Assembly: GCA_026391215.1 (NCBI GenBank)
Contig: JAPLDX010000065.1
Span: forward strand, 330-64,329
DNA length: 64,000 nucleotides
From: Bacteroidia bacterium
GTDB lineage: Bacteria; Bacteroidota; Bacteroidia; Bacteroidales; VadinHA17
Direction: 5' to 3'
Below are positions 781 through 63,145 of the stretch, one piece after another. A program made the translations under genes and the position numbers. Position 1 is the first letter of the stretch; every line of letters starts with the position of its first letter. The notes below the pieces were generated by a model. That model was not told the origin of the DNA. It saw nothing but the letters and a program-made list of their open reading frames with translations, and did no database searches.

Positions 781-929
781 ATATACCCCCCTCCCGCAAC
801 GCGGGATCCCCCCCGAAGGGGGGCTAAATCCAGCCCTCATGCATATACTTATTACATACGGGTTTTAGGCCCCCTTCAGGGGGCAGGCCCACGACTTGCG
901 TGGGCCGGGGGTTCTTAGACCGTTGCGAA
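781..929. repeat. Nested-palindrome intergenic element, copy A
   Basis: ACCCCC(785-790) pairs with GGGGGT(907-912). Encloses hairpins TCCCGC-AAC-GCGGGA, C6-7-GAA(G)-G6, GCCCCC-TTCA-GGGGGC and GGCCCACG-ACTTG-CGTGGGCC. Ends with CCGTTGCG next to the stop codon at 930. Confidence 0.85.
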
Positions 930-3900
930 CTATTTTTCTTCTATCAGCTGCTGAACAAGTACTTCGAGTTTCTCAATTTGTCGCTGCTGATCCTGTATAG
1001 CCTTGACAAGTACCGGAACTAGTTTATTATAATTTATACCCCAGAGTTCATGAGATTCGTCTTCAGGTCTGCTTACAACCTCAGGCATAACATCATATAC
1101 CTCCTGTGCTATCAATCCGATATTTTTTTCACCATCACCTAGAATAAGATCATCACCGCTAAATTCAGAAGTGTGCTGAATGTACTGTTTTGGTATGATC
1201 TTCATTATTTCATTCAGCCCGTAGGCCAGGTCCTCCTGTTCAGATTTTACCCGTGTATCTGAATAGGTATCCCAAGCATATCCTTTTGCCTTTTTAACTG
1301 GGTCGTTTGGAAGCTGCAGATAATAATTTGCATCAGGAGGAAGCATACCTATGGTGACCGGTTTGCCGAAATGGTTATACGTGGCGCCATAACCATATGC
1401 AAAATAAGTTCCATTTGACCAGATGGCTTCTAAGCCATTTATTCTCAACGCTATACCCGAAGATATTCCACTATTAAGGTTTGCTAGACCGGCAACATCA
1501 AGTTTATATGAAGCAGGGTTGATACCGATTCCGACATTTCCATTGTTATTGTCAATCCTCATTCGTTCAACAAAACTGGTGCTGAAGTCAGCCTGAGCTA
1601 TACTTGTGGAATAACCAAACACAAGATCATTAGTGGGATCCGTAGTTAAAAACGCAACTCTGGTACCAGAAAGTGCAACCATACCTCCTCTCGACTGACC
1701 AGAATAATGTGCAATCAACGCAGCATTATTGCCCCATGCCTCAACAGAATATTGGGGGTCTTTTGTATAGATACCCACTTTCCCGTTAAATGCAAGTTTT
1801 TCAGATCCATCTGTAAAATCACCCCATATTAAAGGATTAGATGTTGAGTTCTGATCAATATACAATTTGTAATCGCCATCTTCATTCATTCCTGCAGCTC
1901 TTCCGATAAAAACGTTGCGACTGCCATGCGACTGACGGCCAGTCTGCCAACCGACATATGTATTTCCAAAACCCGCCACATTCGAATAGCCTGCATCATA
2001 GCCGAGGAATGTATTTTCATTTGGACCATTTGTAAGAAATCCGGCATAAGATCCGTAAAAAACGTTATGCGTACCTGCTGCCAGCGAGAATCCTGCCTTT
2101 TCCCCTACTAAAGTGTTCAGGTTGTTTGTGGTCAATCCGGCACCAGTAAGCAAGCCAATAGCAACATTTGAATTCCCTTCTGTAATATTATTTCCAGCCT
2201 GGTTACCTATCAGAATATTGTCAAAACCTGATGTTAATTTATTTCCCGTTTGTGAACCAATAATTACATTGTTATAACCTGAAGTTATTTTCCAACCTGC
2301 ATTATAACCCAGAGCCACGTTATTTGCACCAGTCCCAAAGGATATCTCTGATGCCATACCTGCCTGGTACCCAATGTAAGTATTGTAAGATCCGCTGGTA
2401 TAATTTCTTCCTGCTTTATATCCTATAAACGAGTTGAAACTCGAGTTACTTGCACGCCCTGCCTCAAAGCCCAGGAAAGTATTATAGGCACCTGTACTAT
2501 TTTTGTAACCGCTCTCCCTTCCTATAAAAACATTGTAACTTCCTGCAGGGTCAGCGCCTCCGATATTATTAAAGCCCGTACGGTATCCCAGGAAAACATT
2601 ACTGCTCCCGGTGGTATTTTTCATACCTGCCTGGTAACCCATAAAAGAGTTGTACTGACCGGCATTGGTTTTACCACTTCCTTTGCCCAGGAACACGTTG
2701 TAGGAGTTAGTGTTGTCATAACCAGCTGAATCACCAAGAAATACGTTACTGTTCCCGGAAGTGCCTGAGTATCCTGAAAAGTGACCTACAGCAACATTAT
2801 TTGATCCGTCAGAATTTCCATAGCCTGCCATATATCCAAGAAACACATTATCTGAACCTGAGTAAATGTTAAGGCCGGCGCCATTACCAAGAAAAACATT
2901 ATTGGTACTTGAATAGTTATGCCAGCCAGCCTGATTGCCGATCATAACATTGTTTGAAGCAGATGAATTACCTGCCAGTCCACCTCCGGATGCTTCAAAA
3001 CCAAGATAAATATTGTTGCTCCCGTTATAATTTTGAAAGCCCGCCTTATTGCCTAAGAAAACATTATTATTCCCGGAAAAATTATAATAGCCTGCCAGGT
3101 TACCAAATATGAGATTGAATTGTCCACCTTCATTATTTACCCCTGCACTCTGGCCGAGGAAAACATTTGCTCCTCCAACGGTATTCTTTTTACCGGCATA
3201 AGCGCCTATAAAGACATTGTTGTCACCGGTTGTATTTGATGTTCCAGATTGAGATCCCATGAAAACATTATCATATCCTTCATAGTTAGCATAACCTGCA
3301 GAGTCTCCGATAAATACGTTATTCCATGAGTTGCCATTATTATATCCGGCTTTATAACCAAGGAAGACATTTTTATTTCCATTATAATTGTTGAAACCGG
3401 ACTGGAAACCCAGAAAATTATTGAAACGCCCATAAGTATTGGAATATCCTGACTGACTTCCTACGAATACATTATAAGATGCAGTATCATTTGTGAAGCC
3501 GGCCAGATAACCCAGAAAAACATTCCTTGTTCCGCTTTTATTGCTTTTACCGGATTCATAACCCATCATTATATTATATTTCCCGGTTGTAATGTATTTC
3601 CCGACTGATTCTCCTATCAGGACATTTTGCTTCCCATGAGTAGCCAATTCACCTGCCATGCTGCCAATATAGACATTACCTCCTTCTGACAGGTGAGACC
3701 GGCCGGCTTTATAACCAATAAAAGTATTGTCGCTCCCGGTGTTTTTCCAACCAGCCTGATAACCCAGAAATGCATTATATTGTCCTGTATTAATTTTTCC
3801 GCTTCCTGTTCCCAGGAAAACATTATAACTATCTGTGTTATCATATCCTGCCGAATCACCCAGGAACACATTACTGGAACCTATTACTCCCGAATAGCCT

Positions 3901-5720
3901 GATACGTTTCCGATAGCTACATTATTTGATCCGGACTGATTGGAATTTCCAGCCTTAAAGCCTATGAAAACATTATTAATTCCATCCATATTTGCCTTCC
4001 CTGATTCAAAGCCCAGCATGACATTGTAGCTGCCTGTCGAAATATTGGCTCCGACTGACTGGCCTATCAGTACATTCTGTTCTCCATTAGTGGCTTTCTC
4101 TCCTGCCCTGCTGCCTATATATACATTCCCTCCTTGTGACTGGTTTGAACGGCCGGCTAAATAACCTATAAAAGTATTGTCATTTCCGGTATTTGTTAAT
4201 CCAGCCTGATAACCCATGAATGAATTATATTGTCCTGTATTGATTTTACCGCTTCCCTTGCCAAGAAAAACATTAAAACTGTTTGTGTTGCCATATCCTG
4301 CCGAATCACCCAGGAATACATTACTGGAACCAGATGTTCCCAGATAGCCCGATAAGTTCCCAATCGTAACATTATTTGATCCGGTCAGATTCCCCGAACC
4401 TGCTTTGAATCCGAGAAAAACATTGTTGCTCCCGTCAGTGTTATTAAGACCGGTTTCATATCCTACAAATGAATTGTAAAGCCCATCGTTAATATTGGAA
4501 CCACTTTTCTCTCCAATAAAATAGTTTTCGGGAGTCATATCCATGAAGTAAGATGCTTCTCCTTTCCCTGCAGATGTAAAACCACCTATTGCAAATCCTC
4601 CTTTGGGGGATTTAGCTTCAGTATTAACATAAACCCTTGTACTGTCGCGTGTTACACGCAGATACTCTTCATCTATACCTTTGGCCGTCCCATAACCGCC
4701 AATTGCAAATCCTCCCTTTACTCCTTTATCAGAAGGTTCCTTGTCCAGATAGATCCTCACACTGTCGTTGCTCACCATAAACAGATCCTGCGGCTTGCCT
4801 TTTGCTGTACCATAACCTCCGATAGCAAAGCCGCCTTTTACTCCCTTTGTAATATCAGTATCTGCATTGTCAATATATACCCTTACACTGTCGTCACTTA
4901 CGAAAAGGAGATCCTGTGGATCTGACTTGTTTGTACCATATCCCCCTATGGCAAATCCCCCTTTTGCACCTTTACCTGATTGATCAATATAGATTCTTAC
5001 CGTATCAGGTTTTACTATCAGATATGGTTGCGATGGCCCCTTTACCGTACCAAAACCTCCTACTGCAAACCCTCCTTTTGGACCCTTTGACCCATCATCT
5101 ACATATATCCTTACTCCCTCATTATAAACTGCAAATACAATCTGGCCGTCCTTGTTCTTAACCTCAAACAATGATTCATCCATTACTTCTGTTGAACCTG
5201 CCACTTCCAGCTTGCTGAAAGGACCTTCAAGTTTTTCAGCTACCCTGGCAGTATCAGCCACTATTGCATGGTCAGCAACAATCGCATTTTCAGCTACCAT
5301 GGAATAGGGTACTGACCATAATTTCGCATTACCCATATTTTTCCACGATCCCTGGTAATAGAGCTGGACTTTAAGAAATAACGGAGTTGCCGTCCAGTCT
5401 ATATCCGAAAATTCTGCCGCTGCACCCGATAGCCTTGATCCTGTACCTACTACAAGTCCAAAAACACCGGATGCATTTGTTCTGACGGATGAATGAAGCT
5501 CCTCCCATACAATAGCCGGTGTGAGGGTATCGGAGAGGATAGCCATTTTCGCCTGTATTTCAGTATTTGCAACAGGAACTCCATTACTGTTCCGGGCTAC
5601 TGCCTGGTAATTAAATCCCTGCGGGACCTGGCTCAGGGCGGAGGGCGAAGGGCTCAGGGCAAGAAGACACAAGACACAAGACACAAGACACAAGGGGGAG
5701 AGTTTTGGTTTCATGATCAT
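930..5720 (-). CDS. Giant (1596 aa) secreted tail-fibre-like repeat protein with C-terminal S74-type intramolecular chaperone domain
   Basis: Signal peptide. N-domain QVPQGFNYQAVAR..LWSVPYSM is shared with both neighbours. Five ~35-aa repeats VRIYxD..KGxKGGFAIGGYGT, then ~1000 aa of 14-15-aa NxFxGxxAGxxNTxGxxN repeats. C-terminus YSDTRVK..IGLIAQEV..INYNKLVPVLVKAIQ plus a coiled-coil tail fits the SDxRxK / GxIAQE pattern of endosialidase-chaperone (Peptidase_S74) domains. Confidence 0.8.
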   Translation of the reverse strand: MIMKPKLSPLCLVSCVLCLLALSPSPSALSQVPQGFNYQAVARNSNGVPVANTEIQAKMAILSDTLTPAIVWEELHSSVRTNASGVFGLVVGTGSRLSGAAAEFSDIDWTATPLFLKVQLYYQGSWKNMGNAKLWSVPYSMVAENAIVADHAIVADTARVAEKLEGPFSKLEVAGSTEVMDESLFEVKNKDGQIVFAVYNEGVRIYVDDGSKGPKGGFAVGGFGTVKGPSQPYLIVKPDTVRIYIDQSGKGAKGGFAIGGYGTNKSDPQDLLFVSDDSVRVYIDNADTDITKGVKGGFAIGGYGTAKGKPQDLFMVSNDSVRIYLDKEPSDKGVKGGFAIGGYGTAKGIDEEYLRVTRDSTRVYVNTEAKSPKGGFAIGGFTSAGKGEASYFMDMTPENYFIGEKSGSNINDGLYNSFVGYETGLNNTDGSNNVFLGFKAGSGNLTGSNNVTIGNLSGYLGTSGSSNVFLGDSAGYGNTNSFNVFLGKGSGKINTGQYNSFMGYQAGLTNTGNDNTFIGYLAGRSNQSQGGNVYIGSRAGEKATNGEQNVLIGQSVGANISTGSYNVMLGFESGKANMDGINNVFIGFKAGNSNQSGSNNVAIGNVSGYSGVIGSSNVFLGDSAGYDNTDSYNVFLGTGSGKINTGQYNAFLGYQAGWKNTGSDNTFIGYKAGRSHLSEGGNVYIGSMAGELATHGKQNVLIGESVGKYITTGKYNIMMGYESGKSNKSGTRNVFLGYLAGFTNDTASYNVFVGSQSGYSNTYGRFNNFLGFQSGFNNYNGNKNVFLGYKAGYNNGNSWNNVFIGDSAGYANYEGYDNVFMGSQSGTSNTTGDNNVFIGAYAGKKNTVGGANVFLGQSAGVNNEGGQFNLIFGNLAGYYNFSGNNNVFLGNKAGFQNYNGSNNIYLGFEASGGGLAGNSSASNNVMIGNQAGWHNYSSTNNVFLGNGAGLNIYSGSDNVFLGYMAGYGNSDGSNNVAVGHFSGYSGTSGNSNVFLGDSAGYDNTNSYNVFLGKGSGKTNAGQYNSFMGYQAGMKNTTGSSNVFLGYRTGFNNIGGADPAGSYNVFIGRESGYKNSTGAYNTFLGFEAGRASNSSFNSFIGYKAGRNYTSGSYNTYIGYQAGMASEISFGTGANNVALGYNAGWKITSGYNNVIIGSQTGNKLTSGFDNILIGNQAGNNITEGNSNVAIGLLTGAGLTTNNLNTLVGEKAGFSLAAGTHNVFYGSYAGFLTNGPNENTFLGYDAGYSNVAGFGNTYVGWQTGRQSHGSRNVFIGRAAGMNEDGDYKLYIDQNSTSNPLIWGDFTDGSEKLAFNGKVGIYTKDPQYSVEAWGNNAALIAHYSGQSRGGMVALSGTRVAFLTTDPTNDLVFGYSTSIAQADFSTSFVERMRIDNNNGNVGIGINPASYKLDVAGLANLNSGISSGIALRINGLEAIWSNGTYFAYGYGATYNHFGKPVTIGMLPPDANYYLQLPNDPVKKAKGYAWDTYSDTRVKSEQEDLAYGLNEIMKIIPKQYIQHTSEFSGDDLILGDGEKNIGLIAQEVYDVMPEVVSRPEDESHELWGINYNKLVPVLVKAIQDQQRQIEKLEVLVQQLIEEK
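5632..5694 (-). repeat. Heptamer-phased tract inside the signal-peptide coding region, including perfect (AAGACAC)4
   Basis: Plus strand: CTCAGGG CGGAGGG CGAAGGG CTCAGGG CAAGAAG ACACAAG x4. Perfect AAGACAC x4 at 5664-5691. Analogous tracts at 552-607 and 8728-8776 in the paralogues. Confidence 0.9.
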
Positions 5721-5868: not shown

Positions 5869-6015
5869 GTACCCCCTTCCGGCTAAAGCCGGATCCCCCC
5901 TGAAGGGGAGCTAAATCCAGTTCTCAAACAAACTCCTGTAGAAAACAGGTTTTAAGCCCCCTCAAGGGGGCAGGCCTCGCTTCAGCGAGGCCGGGGGTCC
6001 TTTGAGCCGTTGCGC
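5869..6015. repeat. Nested-palindrome intergenic element, copy B
   Basis: Same architecture as 781..929 with stems TCCGGC-TAAA-GCCGGA, CCCCCC-TGAA-GGGGAG, GCCCCC-TCAA-GGGGGC and GGCCTCGC-TTCA-GCGAGGCC; outer ACCCCC/GGGGGT. Confidence 0.85.
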
Positions 6016-8790
6016 CTATTTATTCTTCAGCTCCTCCACTTCTTTTTTAAGCTCATCTATCTGCTTCTGCTGATCCTTGACAGCCTGAACAAGGATGGCA
6101 GTTAAAACACCATAATTAACCGCTTTGTATCCTTTTTCATCAGTTCTGACAGCGTCAGGGAACGCTTTTTCTAAATCCTGAGCTATTACTCCAATATACT
6201 TTGTGTCATCTGGTTCTTCTCCTTTTACGACATCTTTCTTATAATTATACTCTATGACAGCAAGATCCCTTACTTTGTCAATGACCCCATCACCATCTAT
6301 AGACCTTACATTCTGCTTCAAACGAATATCAGAAGGTGTCCAAACTCCAGTGGCATACGCTGACCCTGAAATATATAATCTGTAGATGGATGATGGTGCC
6401 GAATTGATCCCTACATATGCGTTGAATCTGAGGTATTCATTATAAAAGTCACCGTAAATGAGAGCGCCGGTTGAGGAATAACCATAGTTATCGATATATA
6501 ATTTATCAGATCCAGTTTCATAATATCCTGCCCAATGCCCAATGAAAACATTATTTGAACCGGTGGTGTTTGTATAACCTGCCGCGGGACCAATAATGGT
6601 ATTATACTCCCCGGAAATATTATCATGACCCGACTCATGTCCGAAGAATGCATTTCCTTTTCCGGTTGTTGTGGCATAGCCAGCCATGTGTCCAACTATC
6701 GTATTGTAGTTATTAGTAATTACTTTCCCGGCAGCATTACCCACGATTGTGTTGTATGAGCCTGTTGCACTTGTACCTGCAATATTTCCCAGGTAAACGT
6801 TATGCTCGCCTGCCGTACTTGCATACCCGGCTTCTGAGCCTGCATAAAGATTATAACCTCCGGAAATATTTGAACTTCCTGCCAGGTTGCCGATAAAAGT
6901 GTTATAAGTCCCCGTTGTATTATCATACCCTGCATCGCTTCCGAGTATCACATTCTTTTCTCCTGTTGTTGTGGCCTGACCAGCATTATTTCCTATAAGA
7001 ACATTATAATTGCCAAGATTATCATAACCGGCAAAGTTTCCCATGAAGACTCCGGCTTTTCCCATGTTATTGTACCCGGCATCAGTTCCGATAGCCACGT
7101 TGTAGCTTGCAGTGTCATTATAGTATCCGGCGCCCATACCAATGAAAATATTTTGTTTCCCTTTCAGATTGGTGTAACCTGACTCCTGTCCGAGAAAGAC
7201 ATTGAACCTGCCGTTATTATTATATCCTGCAAGGGTACCGATAGCCACGTTATATGATCCTGAACTTGTGGCTGTATGCTTTGCAAGTTCTCCTGCACCA
7301 TTTCCAATAAAAACATTTGATACGCTTGTCTCATTTGATAATCCTGCATTCTTCCCGAGAAAGACATTATAGCTTCCTTCAGTATTATTAAAACCTGTCG
7401 AATCCCCCAAAAATGTATTAGCAGATCCTTCAGTTGTACTATAACCTGACATATAGCCTAGGAATAAGTTGTATAATCCAGTTGTAATTGACTTACCGCT
7501 GTTATGTCCGATGAAATAGTTCTTGGGAGTAAGCTGGAGAAAGCTTTCTGATCCGGCTTTGGCTGTACCGAATCCGCCGATTGCAAAGCCTCCCTTGGGA
7601 CCTTTAACCGGATTCTGGTCCACATAAACCCTTACGCTGTCGCTTGTTACTGTCAGGAAATTCTGCGAAGTACCTTTATCAGTTCCGAAACCGCCGATGG
7701 CAAATCCGCCTTTAGGACCTTTTGCGACTCCGTCATCAACATATACCCTTACACCCTCATTATATACAGCAAAGACTGTCTGCCCGTTTTTATTCTTTAC
7801 CCTGAATAAGGCAGAGTCAGGTGAAGTCTCAACACCTTTTATCACCAGCTTGGATTCCGATCCGACTATATTAGCTGCAATATAGTCAGAGTTTACCTTT
7901 AGCTGTGCGTCTATTTTATTATCTGCATCTTTCAGATTCGAAGCTATTTTGATATAATTCGATGATGAGTTTGCAGTGTAACTGCCATTATCATTCAATC
8001 CTGCACCTGTTTCTATCGCATTGGCTTCAGTTTTCAGATTAGTTATGTCCGTATTGAATCCAGAGGTGCTGGTTTCAACTGTTTTTATCTTCGAGTCGAG
8101 CAAATCATCTGCGTTTTTTAAACTTGTTGCTGATGAAATATAATCTGCTGACGTATTTGCAGTGTAACTGCCATTATCATTCAATCCTGCACCTGTTTCT
8201 AATGCAGAGGTGCTGGATTCAACTGTTTTTACCTTTGAGTCGAGCAAATCATCTGCATTCTTTAAACTTGTGGCTGCTGAAATATAATTCGCTGATGTAT
8301 TCGATGAATAGCTTCCATTTGTATTTAAACCTCCTCCGGTTTTTATTGCATCAATTTCAGTTTGCAAACCTGTTATGCTCCCCCCGTTACCTGAAATCAT
8401 TGAATATGGTACGGACCATAATTTTGAGGAACCCATATACTTCCATGCACCCTGGTAATAGATCTGGATTTTAAGATATAGAGGCGTTTTAGACCAGTCA
8501 ATTACACTGAATGTCGCAGCTGATCCTGATTGTTTTATTCCGGTTCCGATGACGATACCGAATACCCCGGATGCATTCGTTTTGACCGATGAATGTAGCT
8601 CTTCCCATACTACAACAGGTGTTAGCGTATCGGAGAGAATACTCGCTTTTACCTGGAAGGTGGTCGATGCAATTGCCTGACCTGAGCTATTACGAGCTAC
8701 AGCCTGGTAATTAAAGCCTTGCGGCACCTGAGAAGATAAAAGATAAAAGGAAAAAGACAAAAGAAGTGTAAGGAGGAGTTTTGTTTTCAT
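6016..8790 (-). CDS. Tail-fibre-like secreted repeat protein (924 aa) with C-terminal S74-type chaperone domain
   Basis: Same N-domain (QVPQGFNYQAVARNSSG..LWSVPYSM). Three GAGLNDNGSYTANTSADYISSATSLKNADDLLDSK repeats, two KGPKGGFAIGGFGT repeats and NxFxGxxAG repeats. C-terminus PSDIRLKQNV..IGVIAQDLE..VNYGVLTAILVQAVK plus coiled coil. Confidence 0.8.
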   Translation of the reverse strand: MKTKLLLTLLLSFSFYLLSSQVPQGFNYQAVARNSSGQAIASTTFQVKASILSDTLTPVVVWEELHSSVKTNASGVFGIVIGTGIKQSGSAATFSVIDWSKTPLYLKIQIYYQGAWKYMGSSKLWSVPYSMISGNGGSITGLQTEIDAIKTGGGLNTNGSYSSNTSANYISAATSLKNADDLLDSKVKTVESSTSALETGAGLNDNGSYTANTSADYISSATSLKNADDLLDSKIKTVETSTSGFNTDITNLKTEANAIETGAGLNDNGSYTANSSSNYIKIASNLKDADNKIDAQLKVNSDYIAANIVGSESKLVIKGVETSPDSALFRVKNKNGQTVFAVYNEGVRVYVDDGVAKGPKGGFAIGGFGTDKGTSQNFLTVTSDSVRVYVDQNPVKGPKGGFAIGGFGTAKAGSESFLQLTPKNYFIGHNSGKSITTGLYNLFLGYMSGYSTTEGSANTFLGDSTGFNNTEGSYNVFLGKNAGLSNETSVSNVFIGNGAGELAKHTATSSGSYNVAIGTLAGYNNNGRFNVFLGQESGYTNLKGKQNIFIGMGAGYYNDTASYNVAIGTDAGYNNMGKAGVFMGNFAGYDNLGNYNVLIGNNAGQATTTGEKNVILGSDAGYDNTTGTYNTFIGNLAGSSNISGGYNLYAGSEAGYASTAGEHNVYLGNIAGTSATGSYNTIVGNAAGKVITNNYNTIVGHMAGYATTTGKGNAFFGHESGHDNISGEYNTIIGPAAGYTNTTGSNNVFIGHWAGYYETGSDKLYIDNYGYSSTGALIYGDFYNEYLRFNAYVGINSAPSSIYRLYISGSAYATGVWTPSDIRLKQNVRSIDGDGVIDKVRDLAVIEYNYKKDVVKGEEPDDTKYIGVIAQDLEKAFPDAVRTDEKGYKAVNYGVLTAILVQAVKDQQKQIDELKKEVEELKNK

Positions 8791-8882: not shown

Positions 8883-9146
8883 TGTACTCACCCCCTTCCT
8901 TCGCTCCGCTCAGGCATTCCCCCTCTCTGCTAAAGCAAAGAGGGTGAAGATTACCTTACAAAAACTGAGAAATAAATGAACTTGGTATCAGAATTTTAAG
9001 AATCTAAAATGCAGAATTAAAATATAGAAAAAGCACTTAGATTGATACCCATTTCCTTAGCCTAACTACCAGATAATAAATTATTTATTCAAATTAATCA
9101 CCTCCCTCTTTGCTTTAGCAGAGAGGGGGGCGGGGGGGTGAGTACA
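8883..9146. repeat. MITE-like element: ~50-70-nt terminal inverted repeats flanking an AT-rich core
   Basis: Left arm TGTACTCACCCCC..CCCCCTCTCTGCTAAAGCAAAGAGGGTGAAGATTA (8883-8952). Right arm TAATCACCTCCCTCTTTGCTTTAGCAGAGAGGGGGGCGGGGGGGTGAGTACA (9095-9146) is its reverse complement, apart from a 23-nt insertion in the left arm. Confidence 0.8.
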
Positions 9147-14982: not shown

Positions 14983-15026
14983 CCTTTGTACCCTTGAACC
15001 GTTGAACCATTGCACCTTTGTACCAT
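14983..15026 (-). repeat. 8-nt degenerate tandem array (CAANGG core) abutting the stop of 15026..16135
   Basis: Plus strand CCTTTGTA CCCTTGAA CCGTTGAA CCATTGCA CCTTTGTA CCATTA. In gene sense this reads TAATGG TACAAAGG TGCAATGG TTCAACGG TTCAAGGG TACAAAGG. Confidence 0.9.
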
Positions 15027-18524: not shown

Positions 18525-18553
18525 AATTCTGTCAGGATTTGTGGAACATCATA

Positions 18554-18561
18554 CAAAATTA
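18554..18561 (-). promoter_or_regulatory. Candidate -7 box (TAATTTTG) for the NlpC/P60-epimerase-HGSNAT-amgK-murU operon
   Basis: Matches TAnnTTTG, 30 nt upstream of the ATG at 18524. Confidence 0.45.
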
Positions 18562-18601
18562 TAAATTGCTGCTATATTATAGTGGTTATAATGTGAATCA
18601 A

Positions 18602-19058
18602 ATGAAAAACAGAATTCCTGAATTTATTACTGCTCTTATTATAATACATATCATGGCTGTATCCTGCAGCCGCACGGTGTGAGAGGAGAATTTACAGCAG
18701 GTGAGATCATTGGCTCTATAACTGACCCTGCAACAGGTCTTCCGGTTTTCAGCCGTATTACAGTGTTTCACAGGGTAATATGGTCCATGGGGTACAGATA
18801 CACCTGACCGACGTCAGGAAAGCTCCATTGTCGCTGATCCAGTTTTATATACTACAGGAAGCCCATAAGTTATGGCCGGAGAAGGATATATTTGCCATGA
18901 GTGAAGAATCAAGGCACGAAATGTTTGACAAGGTCTGCGGTACAGACCAGGTAAGAACCGAATTCACGAAGAATTGGACGATAGACTCTATTCCTGATCT
19001 TTGGACTGGAGATATTCCCGGTTTCAGGAAAAAAGTAAAGCCTTATCTCTTGTATTAA
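18602..19058 (+). pseudogene. Decayed DUF1343/NamZ-like (exo-beta-N-acetylmuramidase family) gene remnant
   Basis: Three fragments in three frames. Signal peptide MKNRIPEFITALIIIHIMAVSCSRTV* (18602-18682). GEFTAGEIIGSITDPATGLPVFS (18685 onward), like the ..AGE..D..TGLPVYS block. C-terminal 92 aa GVQIHLTDVRKAPLS..FDKVCGTDQVR..YLLY (18780-19058). About 300 aa of the central part are missing. Confidence 0.6.
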
Positions 19059-19071
19059 AATTTGACCTGAG

Positions 19072-30791: not shown

Positions 30792-30930
30792 ATACCACCT
30801 CCCTCCCGACAAGTCGGGAGTACTCCTCCTCTCAAGAGGAGGAGAAAGTTAAATAAATTTATATTCAAAACTTTCCCCTCCTTTGAAAAGGAGGGGTGTC
30901 ATGCCCGAAGGGCCATGACGGGGTGGTTAT
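30792..30930. repeat. Nested-palindrome element, copy E (five hairpins)
   Basis: CTCCCGAC-AA-GTCGGGAG; CTCCTCCTCT-CAAG-AGAGGAGGAG; GAAAGTT..AACTTTC; CCCCTCCTT-TGAA-AAGGAGGGG; GTCATGCCC-GAA-GGGCCATGAC. Outer ACCACC/GGTGGT. Confidence 0.85.
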
Positions 30931-30956: not shown

Positions 30957-32444
30957 TTATTTATTTTCTGATTCAATATTCAGCCTTTTCCTTGCCAGCA
31001 ACTCGATCGTTCTCAACCTGTCCTTGTACAGGTTATGGGTATTCATTCTGTTTACATCGAGGGCCGCATCAGTGTTTCCCTCCCACCTGCGGCAAAGGTA
31101 CAGAGGTTCATAGATCCGTCCGATCTGGTAGTTACGGCAGATTGCAAGTCCCACAGCATAATCTTCGCCATAGCTGACATTAGGCACCCTGATATCTCTC
31201 AGGACAAGAGTATAGAATGCCCTTGGAGCGCCTAAACCGTTAATCCTCAATGCATTATTTCTTCCATTTTCAGGGGTCCATTCTTTATGATCGATAAGTC
31301 CGGGAGGCAGATCATCAAGATTGAAATTGACCATTTTATATGATCCTACGACCATGGCACATTTCTGGTTATAAAATGCATCTACCACCCTGCTTATTAC
31401 AGTATTGTCAATATAGAGGTCGTCGCTGTCAAGCTGGATTGCGAATTTTCCGCACTTCTGATGAAATACTCCCTCATTCCAGCATCCCCCGATACCCAGG
31501 TCTTTCCGTTCGGGAATGATGTGAACTACCCTGTCATCCACTTTAGTAAAGGCCTTGATCAGATCAGTTGTACCGTCACTTGAATAATTATCGATCACTA
31601 TCAGATTAAACTTGAATTTTGCCTCCTGGCTCAGAACTGACTTTATAGCATCGCGTATTGTCTTTACCCTGTTCTTTACAGGTATGATCACTGAAGCTTC
31701 ATATTCAAATCCTTCAGCATTGAAGCTTATCGATTTAAATTCCGGTTTCAGCCAGCCTTTCATCTTTTTGAGGTGATCAGTGCAGGCTGCTTCCATTTCT
31801 ATCTGAACCGCCCTGTTCCGTGGATCAACATAATCGAATTGCTTTTCGCCTGATTTACGTGTATCACGTTCAATATCGGTGTAAAGCATCTCCGGAATAT
31901 GAACAAGGGAATGCTTCTGTGAAACTTTAAGTCTGAGGTCGTATAATCCCGCAAAAACATACTCCTGGTTCATACTTTTACAAGCTTCTTTAAATGCTGA
32001 TGACCTGTAAAGCATGAGTGATCCGAAATTGAAGTCATCCCGCAGGCTTCCTTCCTGGTAATCGATTACAGGATAGGGTGAAAGCTGGTTGTTCCTGTTC
32101 TCGAAATAATCGGAATATACCATTCCTGCACTTGTGTTTTCACAAACCTGTACCATTCTCTTAAGGGCAAATTTGCCAAGGTCGAGAGAAAATGATTTGG
32201 TATAGATCAGGACAAATTCAGTCTGGACCAGATCAGCTATCTTCTTCAGGGATGCAGTGGTAGTAAATCCATCCGATTCAAGGACTGAAACACCTGTATC
32301 TGAAAAGTCCGTACCGGAACCTTTCCGTGAAACAACAACAATTTTTGCAACCTCCCCCGAGTCTTTTAATGATCGCACTGTAAATTGTGCAGCTTCATTA
32401 TCGGATAATGGCAATAAGCAAGTGATTTTCTTTTCCATGGTCAT
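30957..32444 (-). CDS. Glycosyltransferase family 2 protein with extra N-terminal GT-A-like half
   Basis: C-terminal half [42 protein letters not shown] (GT2 DxD). The N-terminal ~240 aa look like a degenerate second GT-A domain (..[23 protein letters not shown]). Confidence 0.7.
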
Positions 32445-40464: not shown

Positions 40465-40577
40465 AACGGCTCAACGGCTCAATGGCGCAATGGCACAAAG
40501 GTGTTAAGCCTGATAATATCTGATCACCAAAGAACTTTTCCGTTGCGCCGTTGTACCGTTGTACCTTTGCGCCGTTA
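40465..40577. repeat. Two inverted 8-nt tandem arrays in the tRNA-Leu/tRNA-Leu spacer
   Basis: 40465-40503: AACGGCTC AACGGCTC AATGGCGC AATGGCAC AAAGGTG. 40540-40577: CCGTTGCG CCGTTGTA CCGTTGTA CCTTTGCG CCGTTA. Confidence 0.9.
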
Positions 40578-42232: not shown

Positions 42233-43381
42233 ATGATTGATAGAAATATTATAGAAAAATTCCGGGATCTTCCCACTCCCTTTTATTATTATGATCTCGA
42301 TGTCCTTAATTCAAATCTGAATGCTCTTAAGAACGAGTCAGTAAATTCAGGATACAAAATTCATTATGCTGTAAAAGCCAATTCAAATCCGAAAATATTA
42401 AAGATCATTTCTTCCTATGGATTTGGAGCAGATTGTGTCAGCTGGAATGAAATAGCGGCTGCGATGGCAGCAGGATTCAATCCGGGAGAGATCGCCTTTG
42501 CTGGTGTTGGAAAAACCGATAAGGACATAGAGGCAGCTATCAGGGCAGAAATATTTTGTTTCAACTGCGAATCAATCCCTGAGATCGAAGTAATTAATCA
42601 GCTTGCCTTGCAGCACAATCAAACTGTCAGAATTGCACTCAGGATCAATCCGTTAATTGATGCCTATACCCATAAATATATTACCACCGGCATTGAGGAG
42701 AGCAAGTTCGGAATTCAAACATGGGAACTTGATGAAGTACTCAGAAGATTAAGCGAAATGAGGAACGTTAATCTGACGGGCATGCACTTTCACATTGGTT
42801 CGCAGATAACGAGGATGTCGGTCTTCCAGAGTCTGTGTACGCATATCAATGAGCTGCAGGACTGGTTTATTTCGCGCAACGTTGACCTGAAAGTGATAAA
42901 TGTCGGGGGAGGTCTGGGTATCGATTATGAGAATCCGGATAAATCTCCGGGATTTGCAGAATATTTTACCCTGCTCAATGATTTCATTGATCTGAGGTCA
43001 GGTCAGGAGCTTCACCTTGAGCCCGGCAGAGCCGTGATCGGACAATGCGGATCGCTTATCTCTAAAGTGCTGTTTATCAAAAATGGCAGCAATACATTGT
43101 TCGCCATCATTGATGCAGGCATGACTGACCTTATACGTCCTGCCCTCTACCAGGCGCATCATAAAATAGAAAATCTCACTTCGGAAGGAAATGTTTACCG
43201 CTATGATGTGGTAGGACCGGTTTGCGAATCGGCTGATACATTCGCAAAATTCTACGAACTGCCTGAAACCAGGAGGGGGGATATTATAGCTATCAGATCC
43301 GTCGGAGCTTACGGTGAAGTCATGGCTTCACGGTACAATATGAGAGATCTGCCGGGATCGGTGTTTTCGGACGAAATATAA
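42233..43381 (+). CDS. lysA: Diaminopimelate decarboxylase
   Basis: PLP-dependent group IV decarboxylase blocks YAVKANSN, HFHIGSQ, GGGLGI, EPGRA, CESAD. Confidence 0.9.
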   Translation: MIDRNIIEKFRDLPTPFYYYDLDVLNSNLNALKNESVNSGYKIHYAVKANSNPKILKIISSYGFGADCVSWNEIAAAMAAGFNPGEIAFAGVGKTDKDIEAAIRAEIFCFNCESIPEIEVINQLALQHNQTVRIALRINPLIDAYTHKYITTGIEESKFGIQTWELDEVLRRLSEMRNVNLTGMHFHIGSQITRMSVFQSLCTHINELQDWFISRNVDLKVINVGGGLGIDYENPDKSPGFAEYFTLLNDFIDLRSGQELHLEPGRAVIGQCGSLISKVLFIKNGSNTLFAIIDAGMTDLIRPALYQAHHKIENLTSEGNVYRYDVVGPVCESADTFAKFYELPETRRGDIIAIRSVGAYGEVMASRYNMRDLPGSVFSDEI

Positions 43382-43489
43382 CCCCTTGTCGCTACGCGAC
43401 ACCTCCCTGAAGGGGGATTAACTTCAGACATAACTTAATCTCCTGAATAACTGTGAATTAGCTCCCCTTTAGGGGGGATGGGGGGTTTA
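43379..43489. repeat. Nested-palindrome element, copy F
   Basis: Outer TAACCCC / GGGGTTA arms coincide with the two convergent TAA stop codons. Inner GTCGC-TAC-GCGAC, CTCCC-TGAA-GGGGG and CTCCCC-TTTA-GGGGGG. Confidence 0.8.
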
Positions 43490-45073
43490 GTTATTCTGTC
43501 TTGCTTTGCTGTGCTTTACCCCGTAGAAGAAATAAATACACAATCCTATTGCCATCCATATAATGAGCCTCAGCCATGTATCAAGTGGTAATGCAGCCAT
43601 TTGAATGAAACAGATAATTGCACCTGCAATCGGGACAAAAGGTACCCATGGTGTTTTGAACGGACGGTGAATATCAGGCTTTCTCTTTCTCAGGAGAAGA
43701 ACACTAATACAGACAATAATAAAGGCAAAAAGAGTGCCTATTGATACAAGCTGACCAAGAATGCTTATCGGTAATATTCCGGCAATTATCATGGCAACAC
43801 AGCCTGTAACAATGGTACTGATATAAGGAGTCTTGAATTTTGGATGAACTTTGGAAAATACCGGAGGAAGCAATCCATCTTTGGCCATGGTAAAAAAGAT
43901 CCTGGGCTGCCCGAGGAGCATGACAAGGATAACTGAGCTTAGTCCCGCAATTGCTGCAACTTTTACTATAGGACGGAGCCAGAACATTCCCTTTCCCATC
44001 GCATTAACAGCAACTGCAACCGGGTCTGCAACATTTAAAGCTGTATAACTTACAATTCCGGTCATAACAATCGCAACCAGTATATAGAGAACAGTTGAAA
44101 TGCCAAGTGATCCGAGAATTCCTACCGGCATATCCTTTTGAGGATTCTTTGCTTCCTGGGCTGCCGTTGAAACGGCATCAAATCCGATATATGCAAAGAA
44201 GATCACTCCTGCTCCGCGCAGGATCCCGCTGATCCCATATTTACCAAATTCCTGGCCGTATGCTTTCAGCCATGCCCAAAAAGATCCATACTCTGAGATC
44301 GGAGTCGCTTCAACTTTATTCGCTGGAATGAACGGATGCCAGTTAGCTGCTTTAACAAACATGAAACCCAGGACAATGAACAAAATGATAACTGATACCT
44401 TGGTGATTACCATAACGTTATTAAAGTTGGCAGATTCCTTTATTCCAATTACAAGCAGTGTAGTCAATAATGCTACAATGAACATAGCCGGTAAATTCAG
44501 AATGCAAGTGACATGGGCAAGGGAATCAACATTTATGCCTGAAGCTGCAAGTGTTTCCGCATATGCTTTGGTAAGAGACATCCATCCCATCTCCGGCACA
44601 TCGACAAGAACAGAACCTGTAGCTCCTATAAACTGTGCCGGTATATTAATATTAAAATCCCTAAGAAAACTTACAACATAACCCGACCAGCCAACTGATA
44701 CTGTAGAAGCCGCAAAAAGGTACTCAAGAATAAGATCCCAGCCGATTATCCATGCAAAAAATTCACCGAGGGTGGCATAAGAATAAGTATAGGCGCTTCC
44801 GGCAATCGGTATCATGGATGCGAATTCAGCATAGCACAAGCCGGCAAAACCGCATGCTAATCCTGAAATGATAAATGATAACACAATTCCAGGGCCCGCA
44901 TACTGCGCAGCAGCCTGACCTGACAGAACAAATATCCCGGCTCCGATTATAGCGCCGATACCTAATGTTGTAAGATTGAGAGCTGTCAGGGTTCTCTTTA
45001 AGCCACCAGTTTCTTTTGATTCTTTCATCAACTGATCCAGAGGCTTTGTAATAAACAACTGGCTTTTTGACAT
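43487..45073 (-). CDS. APC-superfamily amino acid permease (cationic amino acid transporter-like)
   Basis: About 12-14 TM segments; LTALNLTTLGIGAIIGAGIFVLSG and FAYIGFDAVSTAAQEAKNPQKDMP blocks. Confidence 0.8.
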   Translation of the reverse strand: MSKSQLFITKPLDQLMKESKETGGLKRTLTALNLTTLGIGAIIGAGIFVLSGQAAAQYAGPGIVLSFIISGLACGFAGLCYAEFASMIPIAGSAYTYSYATLGEFFAWIIGWDLILEYLFAASTVSVGWSGYVVSFLRDFNINIPAQFIGATGSVLVDVPEMGWMSLTKAYAETLAASGINVDSLAHVTCILNLPAMFIVALLTTLLVIGIKESANFNNVMVITKVSVIILFIVLGFMFVKAANWHPFIPANKVEATPISEYGSFWAWLKAYGQEFGKYGISGILRGAGVIFFAYIGFDAVSTAAQEAKNPQKDMPVGILGSLGISTVLYILVAIVMTGIVSYTALNVADPVAVAVNAMGKGMFWLRPIVKVAAIAGLSSVILVMLLGQPRIFFTMAKDGLLPPVFSKVHPKFKTPYISTIVTGCVAMIIAGILPISILGQLVSIGTLFAFIIVCISVLLLRKRKPDIHRPFKTPWVPFVPIAGAIICFIQMAALPLDTWLRLIIWMAIGLCIYFFYGVKHSKARQNN

Positions 45074-46764: not shown

Positions 46765-46794
46765 TACAAGATACAAGAAGAAAAATATAAGGGA

Positions 46795-46824
46795 CAAACA
46801 AAAAAGCAACCCTTTTAAGGTTGC
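46795..46824 (-). terminator. Intrinsic terminator for the PKD lipoprotein gene (weakly bidirectional)
   Basis: GCAACC-7 nt loop-GGTTGC (46806-46824), followed on the minus strand by TTTTTTGTTTG. Confidence 0.6.
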
Positions 46825-46836
46825 CTCTTTGTTATG

Positions 46837-46875
46837 TGCCGCAAGCCGTGTACCGTGTACCTCGCGCCGTGCCCT
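46837..46875 (-). repeat. 7-nt degenerate tandem array abutting the stop of the PKD lipoprotein gene
   Basis: In gene sense: TAAAGG GCACGG CGCGAGG TACACGG TACACGG CTTGCGG CAC. Confidence 0.8.
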
Positions 46876-51049: not shown

Positions 51050-51189
51050 GTACTCACCCCCTTAATCCCCCTCTCTGCTAAAGCAAAGAGGGGGAAACTA
51101 TTGTTATACAGCACATTAGCTCCCCCTCCTTGCGAAGCAGGGAGGGGGTTGGGGGGTGGGTACATGTAATGAAGGAAGGGGGTAAGTAC
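51050..51189. repeat. Nested-palindrome element, copy D (same termini as 8883..9146)
   Basis: GTACTCACCCCC..CCCCCTCTCTGC-TAAA-GCAAAGAGGGGG..CTCCCCCTCCTTGC-GAA-GCAGGGAGGGGG..GGGGGGTGGGTAC, plus a second right-end-like GGGGGTAAGTAC at 51178-51189. Confidence 0.8.
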
Positions 51190-53460: not shown

Positions 53461-55149
53461 ATGAAAGAAGCATTTTTCTTATTAACACTAATAACCATTA
53501 TTATGTCACCTTCATGCGGCACAAAGGAAAAAGCCGACCTTGTCATAATCAACGGGAAGGTTCTGACTGTTGATCAGGAGAATCCTTCAGCTGAAGCAAT
53601 TGCGGTTAAAGGAGAAACCATCATTGCAGTCGGTACCACGAAAAAAATTAACTCATTTATTGAAGCTGGTAAAACAAAAATAATTGATGCTTCGGGAAGG
53701 CTGGTAATTCCCGGTTTTAATGATGCACATCTTCATTTCGGACCACTGGATCCTGATTTCATAGAGCTTCGCTATACCACTGATCCTTCAATAATTACTG
53801 AAAAGGTAAAGGCCCAGGTCGCCAGGTCAACACCCGGTGAGCTGATACGGGGCGGACACTGGGTACATGAGTTGTTCCCTGATAAAAAATGGCCCTCAAA
53901 AGAGCTGATTGACAAGGTCTCTCCTGACAATCCTGTCCTGCTTGAACGTGCGGATGGCCATTCCGTGCTGGTTAACAGCTATGTTCTTAAAAAATCAGCA
54001 ATCACAAAGAATACTCCTGATCCTTTTGGCGGCGAAATCCAGAAGGATATTGTGACAGGTGAGCCGACTGGTATCCTTAAGGATGCAGCCATGGGACTGA
54101 TAAAAACCGGAGATATCAAAATTGAAAGAAGTGCTGACGAGGAAAAGGAGAGAACCAGGCATGGATATCTTCTAGCAATGAAAGAGGCCCGCGAACTTGG
54201 AGTTACCAGCATCCAGAATGCAGGATGGGGTGAATTCAAAGCCTATGAAATGCTTCAGAGTGAGGGTGAGCTGACAAGCAGGATCGATATAGGGGCACCT
54301 TTGACTGGTGACTCATCCAAACTTATGCAGTACATGGAACTAGAGAAGAAATATCCCAAAGAGGGGAACTGGATCAGGTTCGGGTACCTTAAAGCCTTTG
54401 CTGACGGGTCAATCGGCTCGTCAACAGCCCTGATGTTTGAACCTTATACTGACAATCCGGCTACCTCAGGACTAGCAATGTGGTCTTATGAAGATCTTGA
54501 AAAAATGGTCCTGGCAGCCGATAAAATGGGTTTTCAGATCGGCATACATGCAATAGGCGATAAAGCCAACAACTGGATACTGAATTCATTTGAAAAGGCT
54601 GTCAAGGTAAATGGAAAGCGCGACAGCCGGCATCGCGATGAACATACACAGACAGTTCTGCTGTCAGATATCCCAAGGTTTGCACAGCTTGGAGTAATTC
54701 CATCAATGCAGCCAACACATTGCATTTCAGATAAACTGTTCTATGAAAAAAGAGTTGGATTTGAAAGGTGCAAGGGCACTTATGCATGGCGAAGTCTCAT
54801 TGATGCAGGTTCACTGCTCGCTTTCGGAACCGATTACCAGGTGGAACCGCTGAATCCGATAGAAGGCCTTTATGCTGCTGTCACAAGAAAAGACAGGCTT
54901 GGCGAGGAAGGCGAAGGATGGTTTCCCGGACAGAAGCTTACAATGGAAGAAGCAATAAAATATTACACCTTCGGCTCCGCATATGCACAGTTCATGGATG
55001 ACAGAAAGGGCATGATCAAACCGGGATACCTGGCTGATATAGTAATTGTTGACAAAGATCTCCTGACAATCCCCGAATCGGAGATTATGAAGACAAAGGT
55101 AGATTATACGATTGTCGGAGGTAAAATTGTCTATAATTCTGATAAATGA
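53461..55149 (+). CDS. Amidohydrolase_3-family metal-dependent hydrolase, lipoprotein-like signal
   Basis: IIMSPSC lipobox; VIPGFNDAHLH metal-binding HxH; GIHAIGD; AFGTDY. Confidence 0.7.
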   Translation: MKEAFFLLTLITIIMSPSCGTKEKADLVIINGKVLTVDQENPSAEAIAVKGETIIAVGTTKKINSFIEAGKTKIIDASGRLVIPGFNDAHLHFGPLDPDFIELRYTTDPSIITEKVKAQVARSTPGELIRGGHWVHELFPDKKWPSKELIDKVSPDNPVLLERADGHSVLVNSYVLKKSAITKNTPDPFGGEIQKDIVTGEPTGILKDAAMGLIKTGDIKIERSADEEKERTRHGYLLAMKEARELGVTSIQNAGWGEFKAYEMLQSEGELTSRIDIGAPLTGDSSKLMQYMELEKKYPKEGNWIRFGYLKAFADGSIGSSTALMFEPYTDNPATSGLAMWSYEDLEKMVLAADKMGFQIGIHAIGDKANNWILNSFEKAVKVNGKRDSRHRDEHTQTVLLSDIPRFAQLGVIPSMQPTHCISDKLFYEKRVGFERCKGTYAWRSLIDAGSLLAFGTDYQVEPLNPIEGLYAAVTRKDRLGEEGEGWFPGQKLTMEEAIKYYTFGSAYAQFMDDRKGMIKPGYLADIVIVDKDLLTIPESEIMKTKVDYTIVGGKIVYNSDK

Positions 55150-55294
55150 CCCCCGTCCATGCTGAAGCATGGCCTGCCCCCTAAAGGGGGCTCAAAACCA
55201 TTTACCTATTTTGATTAGTGGTGGGTTTTAGACCCCCTTCAGGGGGTGCTGCGAAGCAGCGGGGGTTCTTACCTTCAGGGGGGGTGGGGGGTCA
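55147..55294. repeat. Nested-palindrome element, copy G
   Basis: Outer TGACCCCC / GGGGGTCA. Inner CCATGC-TGAA-GCATGG, GCCCCC-TAAA-GGGGGC, ACCCCC-TTCA-GGGGGT and GCTGC-GAA-GCAGC. The left arm contains the TGA stop of 53461..55149. Confidence 0.8.
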
Positions 55295-55533
55295 TCAGAC
55301 AGGGAAGTAAGTATCCTTAGTGCCTCCTCTCTTGAATTTCCGCAAAATTCTGGTTCCGGCTTGAAGTTAACACATACTTTTGGTCTTATACGATCTCCGT
55401 ACAGTGCACATTTATTATCATCAAGCAGATGAATGCATTTTAGCCCTGCCGGCTTGCCCTCAGGCATTCCGGGAATCGGTGAAGATATAGATATCGCGAT
55501 ACAGCAAGCACCGCAGTCTTCTCTGCAATCCAT
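55228..55533 (-). CDS. YkgJ-family Cys-cluster (zinc/iron-chelating) protein
   Basis: MDCREDCGACCI..KCIHL..NKCALY..VCVNF CxxCxxCC-type pattern. The last ~22 codons lie inside repeat element 55147..55294. Confidence 0.6.
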   Translation of the reverse strand: MDCREDCGACCIAISISSPIPGMPEGKPAGLKCIHLLDDNKCALYGDRIRPKVCVNFKPEPEFCGNSREEALRILTSLSDDPPPPLKVRTPAASQHPLKGV

Positions 55534-55538
55534 TGAGG

Positions 55539-55625
55539 AAAGATAAAAGATAAAAGTAAAAAGATAAAAGTAAATAGGGAAATATTCAGATTTTAACCGT
55601 TGAACCTTGGTACCGTTGAGCCTTA
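55539..55625 (-). repeat. A-rich 7-nt array (55539-55575) plus 8-nt CAANGG array (55595-55625)
   Basis: AAAGATA AAAGATA AAAGTAA AAAGATA AAAGTAA. Then AACCGTTG AACCTTGG TACCGTTG AGCCTTA, which is CAACGG/CAAGG units in the sense of the FtsX permease gene whose stop is at 55636. Confidence 0.8.
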
Positions 55626-61855: not shown

Positions 61856-61932
61856 ATTTTGGAAATGATAAAAACCTTTATTAAACTTGTGACTTACAAC
61901 TATGAATATATAACTAATTAACAATCAACAAG

Positions 61933-63144: not shown

Positions 63145-63145
63145 G

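Follow-up and report, generated by a model that had tools for sequence, protein, structure and literature searches.

What is the long structured sequence that follows the stop codons of two neighboring genes in this stretch of DNA, 64 kb in length and referred to here as the window, and does its conserved pairing denote an RNA gene? A sequence-only reading had described a multi-hairpin element behind each of two "fibre" genes, in which bases on both arms of the stems differ between the copies while complementarity is kept, and had proposed a selected RNA or a cruciform DNA structure. The window is ordinary chromosome, with thrS-infC-rplT, trmD, lysC, dapB and glycoside hydrolase genes.

The elements behind the fibre genes

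Three fibre-gene paralogues lie in tandem on the minus strand (2-664, 930-5720 and 6016-8790). Their products are large, repetitive surface proteins whose signal peptides are similar and whose N-terminal regions are conserved. A C-terminal Peptidase_S74 (intramolecular chaperone) domain is present in both complete paralogues, ORF 930..5720 (1596 amino acids) and ORF 6016..8790 (924 amino acids). The motif TCGTCAAAA is common to the upstream spacers of two of the paralogues, ∼100 nt before the start codon, and may be a shared promoter or regulatory site.

The structured elements, copies A and B, start 16 nt past the stop codons of the two complete minus-strand genes. Their location and module order are as originally described, with a mean column identity of 81%. 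The features are as follows.

784-913, minus strand: copy A, whole element (covariance model 56.2 bits, E 1.8e-13)
907-912, minus strand: copy A, outer arm ACCCCC
886-906, minus strand: copy A, variable hairpin hp1, GGCCCACG-CAAGT-CGTGGGCC
869-884, minus strand: copy A, 5' C5/G5 palindrome
861-868, minus strand: copy A, CTAAAACC module
834-860, minus strand: copy A, AT-rich spacer
824-833, minus strand: copy A, GGATTTAG module
808-824, minus strand: copy A, 3' C6/G6 palindrome
792-806, minus strand: copy A, second variable hairpin hp4, TCCCGC-GTT-GCGGGA
785-791, minus strand: copy A, outer arm GGGGGGT
914-929, minus strand: 16-nt linker TTCGCAACGGTCTAAG from the stop codon of ORF 930..5720 to copy A
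5870-5999, minus strand: copy B, whole element (covariance model 55.8 bits)
5993-5998 and 5871-5876, minus strand: copy B, outer arms
5973-5992, minus strand: copy B, hp1, GGCCTCGC-TGAA-GCGAGGCC
5956-5971, minus strand: copy B, 5' palindrome
5921-5947, minus strand: copy B, spacer
5895-5910, minus strand: copy B, 3' palindrome
5878-5893, minus strand: copy B, hp4, TCCGGC-TTTA-GCCGGA
6000-6015, minus strand: linker from copy B to the stop codon of ORF 6016..8790

Read in the sense of the genes, the plan of both copies is ACCCCC, hp1, CUGCCCCCUGAAGGGGGC-NU-AAAACC, the AT-rich spacer, GGAUUUAG-CCCCCCUUCGGGGGG, hp4 and GGGGGGU. The five base pairs reported to differ on both arms are exact, four of them between GGCCCACG/CGTGGGCC and GGCCTCGC/GCGAGGCC and one between TCCCGC/GCGGGA and TCCGGC/GCCGGA. 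The "..CCGTTGCG.." segment, which had been counted as a module of the element, is actually two units of a separate 8-nt periodic repeat: the linker at 914-929 consists of two TTGNRCCN-type units and lies outside copy A. The 16 nt that connect each copy to the stop codon are common to both, and the most likely origin of the pair is therefore a tandem duplication that took in a fibre gene and the element behind it; the hp1 and hp4 hairpins would have diverged or been exchanged afterward.

The TTGNRCCN units, which also make up the linker at 6000-6015, occur as arrays at the 3' ends of other genes (14986-15024, 40468-40498 on the minus strand, 40543-40573 and 55592-55622). A two-unit pattern has 15 matches in the window versus 1.06 expected, and two inverted arrays between two tRNA-Leu genes form a long hairpin.

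Additional copies and related mosaics in the window

Besides copies A and B, the window contains two more copies, C and D, and three related mosaics. The search employed a covariance model built from a five-seed alignment of copies from other genomes with a hand-specified structure. A MAFFT alignment of 24 copies was set aside, as the variable hairpin was out of register and RNAalifold gave only 13 pairs. The covariance model, with no seed from the window, recovered all four window copies at 54-70 bits, and the mosaics at 30795-30926 and 51056-51155 more weakly.

55148-55293, plus strand: copy C, 3' of the amidohydrolase gene 53461..55149 (69.8 bits)
55148-55267: core of copy C, hp1 GTCCATGC-TGAA-GCATGG and hp4 GCTGC-GAAG-CAGC, followed by an extra G-rich tail module to 55293
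43382-43486, plus strand: copy D, more degenerate, 3' of a lysA-like gene (54.2 bits)
30795-30926: related mosaic with outer ACCACC/GGTGGT and four hairpins around an AT-rich spacer (38.7 bits)
51056-51155: short form (∼100 bp) of a second family, with GTACTCACCCCC...GGGGGGTGGGTAC terminal inverted repeats and two hairpins (18.6 bits)
8885-9146: long form (∼260 bp) of the second family, with perfect 12-bp terminal inverted repeats GTACTCACCCCC/GGGGGTGAGTAC

The ACCCCC start of copy C overlaps the TGA stop codon of the amidohydrolase gene. The lysA-like gene (42233..43381) and a convergent amino-acid permease gene (43487..45073) have 105 nt between their stop codons, and copy D occupies precisely this gap. 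The mosaic at 30795-30926, 3' of the glycosyltransferase gene 30957..32444, has the architecture of the family with different sequences, and that at 51056-51155 is placed between rplT and a convergent signal peptidase gene. In all, mosaics occupy 7 of the 20 tandem or convergent intergenic spacers of the window versus none of the seven divergent (promoter) spacers, and the family thus explains a good share of the structured intergenic DNA. No transposase, integrase or recombinase was found among the 40 window ORFs scanned against Pfam.

Copy C also bears on an adjacent reading frame. The last 25 codons (…DDPPPPLKVRTPAASQHPLKGV) of a convergent CxxCxxCC-domain ORF (55228-55533, minus strand) are encoded by copy C and its G-rich tail. 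These codons are unconserved in the homologues at L014 and L020, and therefore the repeat replaced or extended the C-terminus and stop codon of this ORF.

The second family, with GTACTCACCCCC ends, inner hairpins TCCCCCTCTCTGC-TAAA-GCAAAGAGGGGGA and, in the long form, an AT-rich middle, looks like a true MITE; a member occurs as well at one of the lysA loci described below (L103). Other spacers of the window have contents of their own. After trmD, approximately 11 tandem copies of the 9-nt unit AGGTCRTGC are followed by a CTTGCAGGAC/TGGCAAGAC-like array (61669-61860), and the 264-nt spacer folds to -113 kcal/mol. The spacers at 18525-19071 (547 nt) and 63145-63519 (375 nt) are unremarkable in GC content; the gene list has no ORF of at least 100 amino acids there, and they may hold short or unannotated genes.

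Distribution among genomes

A 24-nt pattern, GCCCCCTNNAGGGGGCNNAAAACC, was scanned against one genome per species for 185,579 species and matched 33 loci. Thirty-one of these are in 13 Bacteroidales MAGs, with up to six per MAG, labelled "uncultured Rikenellaceae", Bacteroidales, Bacteroidia or Paludibacter. These motif loci, like copies C and D, lie beside unrelated genes, and the idea of a 3' element private to the fibre genes is thereby abandoned. The remaining two loci are in Gemmatales/Gemmataceae (Planctomycetes) MAGs and appear unrelated. One Gemmatales MAG nevertheless contains its own tandem repeat (L028, 2635-2848), in which a CCCGGCCGTAAACGACCGGGC hairpin is paired with a GCCCCCTGAAGGGGGC hairpin; this repeat may represent a REP-like family of separate origin that has converged on a C5-TGAA-G5 unit. 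The family motif was absent from a scan of viral contigs, and the motif strings had no occurrence in the searchable literature.

With the covariance model, ∼49 distinct sites were located in ∼650 kb of DNA. Almost no copies outside the lysA site were present in 363 kb of more distant relatives, and therefore the family is abundant only in a sub-clade. The copies have a common frame with optional parts: hp1 is missing from L022, L008b and L015b, and hp4 from most copies, a hairpin is inserted within the 3' palindrome in L008, L010, L011 and L030, and L004, L025 and L089 are half-elements.

Predicted fold, covariation and strand symmetry

The minimum-energy RNA folds of copies A and B have predicted energies of -83.4 and -83.7 kcal/mol (z = -4.6 and -5.9, respectively), and none of 200 shuffled sequences was as good. 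In both, the outer ACCCCC/GGGGGT arms close a multi-branch fold, as had been suggested. The hairpin modules that had been described are all present, but the two C5/G5 palindromes do not form two local hairpins in the predicted fold. Rather, they pair with one another in a long central stem, along with the AAAACC/GGTTT arms across the spacer, giving a four-way junction with linkers of only 0-1 nt. Selection for the long central stem was tested through covariation between the loops of the two palindromes. A hand count of the loop-loop combinations gave 4 G-C, 10 A-T, 10 G-T and 8 A-C, that is, no association, so covariation favors neither the long stem nor the local hairpins.

In an alignment of the 32 best copies, standard pairs make up 95% of 937 pair cells, 19 of the 31 pairs show both-sided changes, and all seven modelled pairs of hp1 covary, with 99% pairing. 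None of 500 shuffles reached the observed values, and when the partners were slid by one to three columns the pairing dropped to 42-72%. Note that the alignment was fitted to the model and is hence biased toward the structure; the margin over the controls is large. The assertion that pairing is kept while sequence is not holds well beyond the original two copies, with the 32 copies far exceeding both the shuffled and the slid controls.

Covariation statistics of this strength argue for a dedicated structured RNA, either a 3'-UTR-derived small RNA or a cis-regulatory 3' element, with the four-way junction selected as RNA and the covariation true. All four window copies read in the same sense as the gene upstream, and as RNA that strand folds 1.5-9.7 kcal/mol better than its complement, which also favors such an RNA. 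In addition, two base pairs of hp1 have undergone transitions on both arms between the close orthologues L013 and L017, with a single T.G pair retained by both, which indicates that stepwise compensation under selection also occurs.

The wobble pairs, however, speak against this explanation. An RNA selected on one strand is expected to tolerate G.U pairs and not A.C pairs. The 937 pair cells comprise 871 Watson-Crick pairs, 19 G.U pairs and 18 A.C pairs, a parity that arises although the covariance model itself favors G.U, and the lack of a G.U excess counts against selection on one particular RNA. When split by gene context, the counts are four G.U and three A.C for tandem sense copies, six and three for tandem antisense copies, and 17 and 16 for convergent copies, with no bias toward the transcribed strand. 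Both single strands of all four window copies fold, and equally well (z = -4.0 to -7.6), and over 49 sites the difference between sense and antisense RNA folding energies was of mixed sign, with no strand preference. Across the copies, all of the helices are evidently kept as Watson-Crick palindromes that can be read on either strand. The lesson is that clean covariation statistics can stem from palindromic repeat DNA rather than from an RNA gene; the G.U versus A.C strand test and the comparison of orthologous loci distinguish the two.

No Rfam family was matched by the element, in agreement with the sequence-only reading. At the gathering threshold, the only Rfam matches in the window were two tRNA-Leu genes, and a relaxed search added only generic long-hairpin (miRNA precursor) matches far below threshold. 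A tRNA-like identity was likewise rejected: ARAGORN calls only the two tRNA-Leu genes, and the arm lengths and loops of the elements are unlike those of tRNA.

Strand symmetry and a four-way geometry with linkers of 0-1 nt would also suit a DNA-level site for protein binding or recombination, be it attC-like, a Holliday-junction-like substrate, or a site for a nucleoid protein or gyrase (as proposed for BIMEs). In one hp1 type, GGCCATCAGCCAATTGGCTGATGGCC, even the loop belongs to a perfect palindrome of 26 bp; among the copies compared, most hairpins lack a palindromic loop. The attC sites are imperfect palindromes located 3' of genes, and their fold is conserved while the sequence varies, as is the case here. 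They are accompanied by an integron integrase and cassette arrays, however, and they have a conserved R/L core and require extrahelical bases. Neither an integrase nor a recombinase is encoded by the scanned window ORFs, there is no cassette array, no GTTRRRY-type core is visible in the copies, and these are scattered among housekeeping genes. We regard a dedicated DNA site as most unlikely. Of the two alternatives offered originally, an RNA specific to the fibre genes is unsupported, and the cruciform DNA lies closer to the data.

Exchange of hairpins and turnover at orthologous sites

Orthologues of copy C are found at L014 and L020, where the flanking amidohydrolase is 85% and 79% identical, respectively. 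At 20 of 23 positions the AT-rich spacer of copy C matches that of L014, and the two copies also have both C5/G5 palindromes and the G-rich tail in common. Their hp1 hairpins are nonetheless unrelated, GTCCATGC-TGAA-GCATGG in copy C versus GGCCATCAGCC-AGCT-GGCTGATGGCC in L014, as are their hp4 hairpins, and the lengths of both differ. L026 has exactly the hp4 of copy C, combined with a different spacer and with an hp1 resembling that of L014. A retained spacer combined with unrelated hairpins signifies that the hairpins were swapped as modules.

A similar picture emerges from the copies on three contigs of one MAG (L007, L018 and L019b). Between the start of the 5' palindrome and the end of the tail, AT-rich spacer included, these copies are 95-97% identical, and their flanks are unrelated. 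L019b has the same body as the other two with a different hp1. Hairpin types such as G-TCCCGnn-loop-nnCGGGA-C recur at hp1, at hp4, inside other outer repeats and across genomes. The simple swapping of modules between copies, which the sequence-only reading had named as evidence against its own proposal, thus describes several cases (copy C with L014 and L026, and L019b), so that much of the "conserved pairing, different sequence" would appear to be swapping among a pool of ready-made palindromes.

The lysA site was compared in 80 orthologous metagenome loci in which the lysA-like protein is 73-87% identical. Among these loci the 3' spacer is hypervariable. Ten of the 80 contain a family member, with various hairpins, and in L078 it is inverted: five tandem half-units with a 65-nt period (3670-4040) lie in the orientation opposite to that of the copies on other contigs. 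Each half-unit is composed of GGCCCCCC, the hairpin GTCCCGCTGAGGCGGGAC and a C5-TAAA-G5 palindrome with a short AT spacer. Only remnants are found in L049 (TAACCCCCTG), L057 and L042, the stop codons of both genes overlap in L035, and many loci contain unrelated short tandem repeats instead. The latter, with units of 7-9 nt similar in kind to the TTGNRCCN arrays and of other sequence, fill the spacer in L034, L044-L046, L052, L075, L082, L090, L099 and L113. No filled and empty pair was seen between near-identical genomes, and mobility is therefore deduced from the similarity of the copies and the patchy occupancy.

From these comparisons it is clear that the family is multi-copy and evidently spreads to new loci within genomes, that it has apparently been gained, lost and inverted at orthologous sites, and that its extra hairpins have evidently been exchanged between copies as whole modules. 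Such behavior is difficult to reconcile with the structured RNA introduced above. Dozens of copies lie beside unrelated genes, some of them antisense behind those genes and one inverted at an orthologous site; hairpins are replaced wholesale while a neutral spacer is retained; and some copies lack hp1, hp4 or a whole half. In light of these features and the wobble counts, the dedicated RNA is, in our estimation, decidedly unlikely.

We consider it fairly probable that the elements constitute a dispersed, modular, GC-rich palindromic repeat family of an uncultured Bacteroidales clade, similar to REP/BIME, REPIN and small MITE sequences. The plan of the family is a terminal inverted repeat, (T)GACCCCC...GGGGGGTC(A), around two inverted C5-loop-G5 palindromes that are separated by 25-45 nt of AT-rich spacer, with one or two extra hairpins (hp1 and hp4) at fixed junctions beside the terminal repeats. 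The "compensatory" differences between copies A and B would then reflect module exchange and symmetric maintenance of palindromes, and not selection on one particular RNA. Maintenance may proceed by arm-to-arm correction or by selection for the folding of both strands.

Position at gene ends

All of the copies are intergenic, and the C5/G5 palindromes, hp1 and hp4 are 16-26 nt each. The distance from the elements to stop codons in tandem and convergent spacers is 0-20 nt, and promoter spacers are avoided. From crude ORF calls, the gene contexts are convergent in 16 cases, tandem in 12 and divergent in four. In the tandem contexts, the hp1 side faces the upstream gene in eight cases and the opposite way in four, which is not significant (two-sided binomial p ∼0.39).

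The ends of the element, the inverted repeat (T)GACCCCC...GGGGGGTC(A), are conserved, 6-8 bp in length and 93% paired. Stop codons overlap them, on either side, in at least 15 loci: in at least nine, that of the upstream gene extends into the opening bases of the element, and in at least six, that of a convergent gene extends into the final bases. No flanking direct repeat that would represent a target-site duplication was present in the 41 copies examined. The flanks of these copies are A-rich on the left and T-rich on the right, extending the inverted repeat. Through these stop codons, and in one instance through a C-terminal extension, the family alters gene ends, and it is bound to mislead gene callers, RNA-motif screens and assemblers.

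Such positions raise the possibility that the elements are ordinary or bidirectional terminators that evolved in place and came to resemble one another by convergent selection for GC hairpins. Their siting at gene and operon ends, including that after rplT, is in keeping with this idea, as are the exact fill of convergent spacers and the strand symmetry, which a bidirectional terminator requires. An identical 24-nt motif at more than 30 loci, and bodies that are 95-97% identical at unlinked loci, AT-rich spacers included, signify copying and not convergence. Identity as an intrinsic terminator was rejected because the GC hairpins are without a following U-tract. In the terminator scan, neither copy A nor copy B ended in a U-tract or terminator-like site, and the elements are not called, the sequences downstream of the window copies being TATATTG, TACATCA, TCATCAG and TTTAGTT, whereas at least one canonical hairpin and T-run site exists elsewhere in the window (46765-46875). 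The element is also missing from most of the lysA-site orthologues. Terminators evolved in place are, accordingly, a very unlikely explanation.

A repeat family may still act where it lies. From its position, the element is probably co-transcribed with the upstream gene, from either side. In the transcript, the 3' end would be predicted to fold into a highly stable three- or four-way junction, which could block 3' exonucleases and/or stop transcription without a U-tract. REPs of E. coli located close to stop codons modulate translation termination. In view of the position at gene ends (including that after the rplT operon) and the stability, it is plausible that the element hinders exonucleases, terminates transcription independently of a U-tract or modulates translation termination. 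If the elements do terminate or stabilize transcripts, they would represent gene-end signals that are spread by repeat propagation in a phylum whose terminators have been little studied.

A bolder version of the repeat-family reading, which we think unlikely, is that of a mobile "gene-end module". Its inverted ends would provide stop codons for the genes on both sides, its body would serve as a U-tract-independent bidirectional terminator or an RNA-protecting junction, and its junction hairpins, at two fixed sites after CCCCC and before GGGGG, would be swapped as cassettes. Were this true, a site-specific single-strand cut-and-paste or templated-repair activity undescribed in Bacteroidales would be implied.

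Comparison with known repeat families

REPs are short GC-rich palindromes present in many copies and arranged in mosaics, often as inverted dimers, with heterogeneous stems and loops (Di Nocera et al. 2013, PMC3733652). They occupy the spaces that separate unidirectional or convergent ORFs, usually at a distance of less than 20 bp from a 3' end, and in some cases a stop codon is furnished by the REP terminus (PMC3733652). The family described here resembles REP/BIME sequences, which are short imperfect palindromes of 20-40 bp, in that it too consists of multi-copy short palindromes, intergenic, 3'-proximal and stop-supplying. In the tagged REP super-families, one end of the palindrome bears an unpaired GTAG or CGTC tetranucleotide (PMC3733652); no such unpaired tag is present here. 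Membership among the CGTC-tagged REPs was entertained, since CGTC occurs at the foot of ∼12 hp1 hairpins, and rejected, since the GTC pairs with GAC in the stem; among the copies compared, GTAG flanks no module and the other hp1 types are without CGTC. The family further differs from REPs in that an outer closing inverted repeat encloses the unit and the stems are C5/G5 runs rather than AT-started. We know of no RAYT gene for this family.

In REPINs, two conserved inverted palindromes and a less conserved spacer form a long hairpin (Bertels and Rainey 2011, PMC3116915). Tandem arrays and single decayed halves occur, and compensatory changes are common (PMC3116915), such that compensation alone does not indicate an RNA gene. 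Here too there are two inverted palindromes and a spacer as one predicted long hairpin, tandem arrays and halves. REPINs are linked to a RAYT transposase that flanks them in single copy, and to invariant 16-mers (PMC3116915), whereas the present family has no known transposase and carries extra, exchangeable junction hairpins. Neither a transposase, a RAYT nor a parent insertion sequence was found within the 64 kb of this genome and the fragments of others. A tblastn search of ∼650 kb with an E. coli RAYT query gave no match, which is a weak test.

Pneumococcal BOX elements are modular, with modules that vary in number and choice between fixed end modules, and have extensive secondary structure (Croucher et al. 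2011, PMC3049150). They are co-transcribed with their neighbors, have a narrow host range and a low current rate of transposition, and sometimes modify gene ends (PMC3049150). The modular build, narrow host range and altered gene ends of the present family are similar to those of BOX and small MITEs; the module sequences are unrelated. Correia/NEMIS and ERIC are other small MITEs with a modular and structured build like that of BOX, and Correia elements duplicate TA. In comparison with small MITEs, the terminal repeats here are much shorter (6-8 bp) and no target-site duplication was seen; MITE terminal inverted repeats are usually 15-30 bp (PMC3733652). Occupancy of 10 of the 80 lysA loci, once in inverted orientation, and near-identical copies at unlinked loci are MITE traits.

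Within the same order, BrickBuilt of Porphyromonas gingivalis is a composite intergenic MITE that ends in small inverted repeats and contains repeated subunits in its interior (Klein et al. 2015, PMC4596501). It has a 23-nt minisatellite with a leader and a tail, is situated 49-591 nt from genes and carries promoters (PMC4596501). The present family is likewise a composite intergenic Bacteroidales repeat but, unlike BrickBuilt, is built of nested hairpins that abut stop codons.

The multi-copy, mosaic and inverted-dimer character, the location at 3' ends, the supply of stop codons, the narrow host range and the symmetric Watson-Crick pairing all argue for kinship with REP/BIME, REPIN and BOX-like MITE sequences. 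The element is thus best read as a new family of a known kind of repeat, set apart by a predicted four-way-junction architecture, by cassette-like hairpins and by stop codons in both of its ends.
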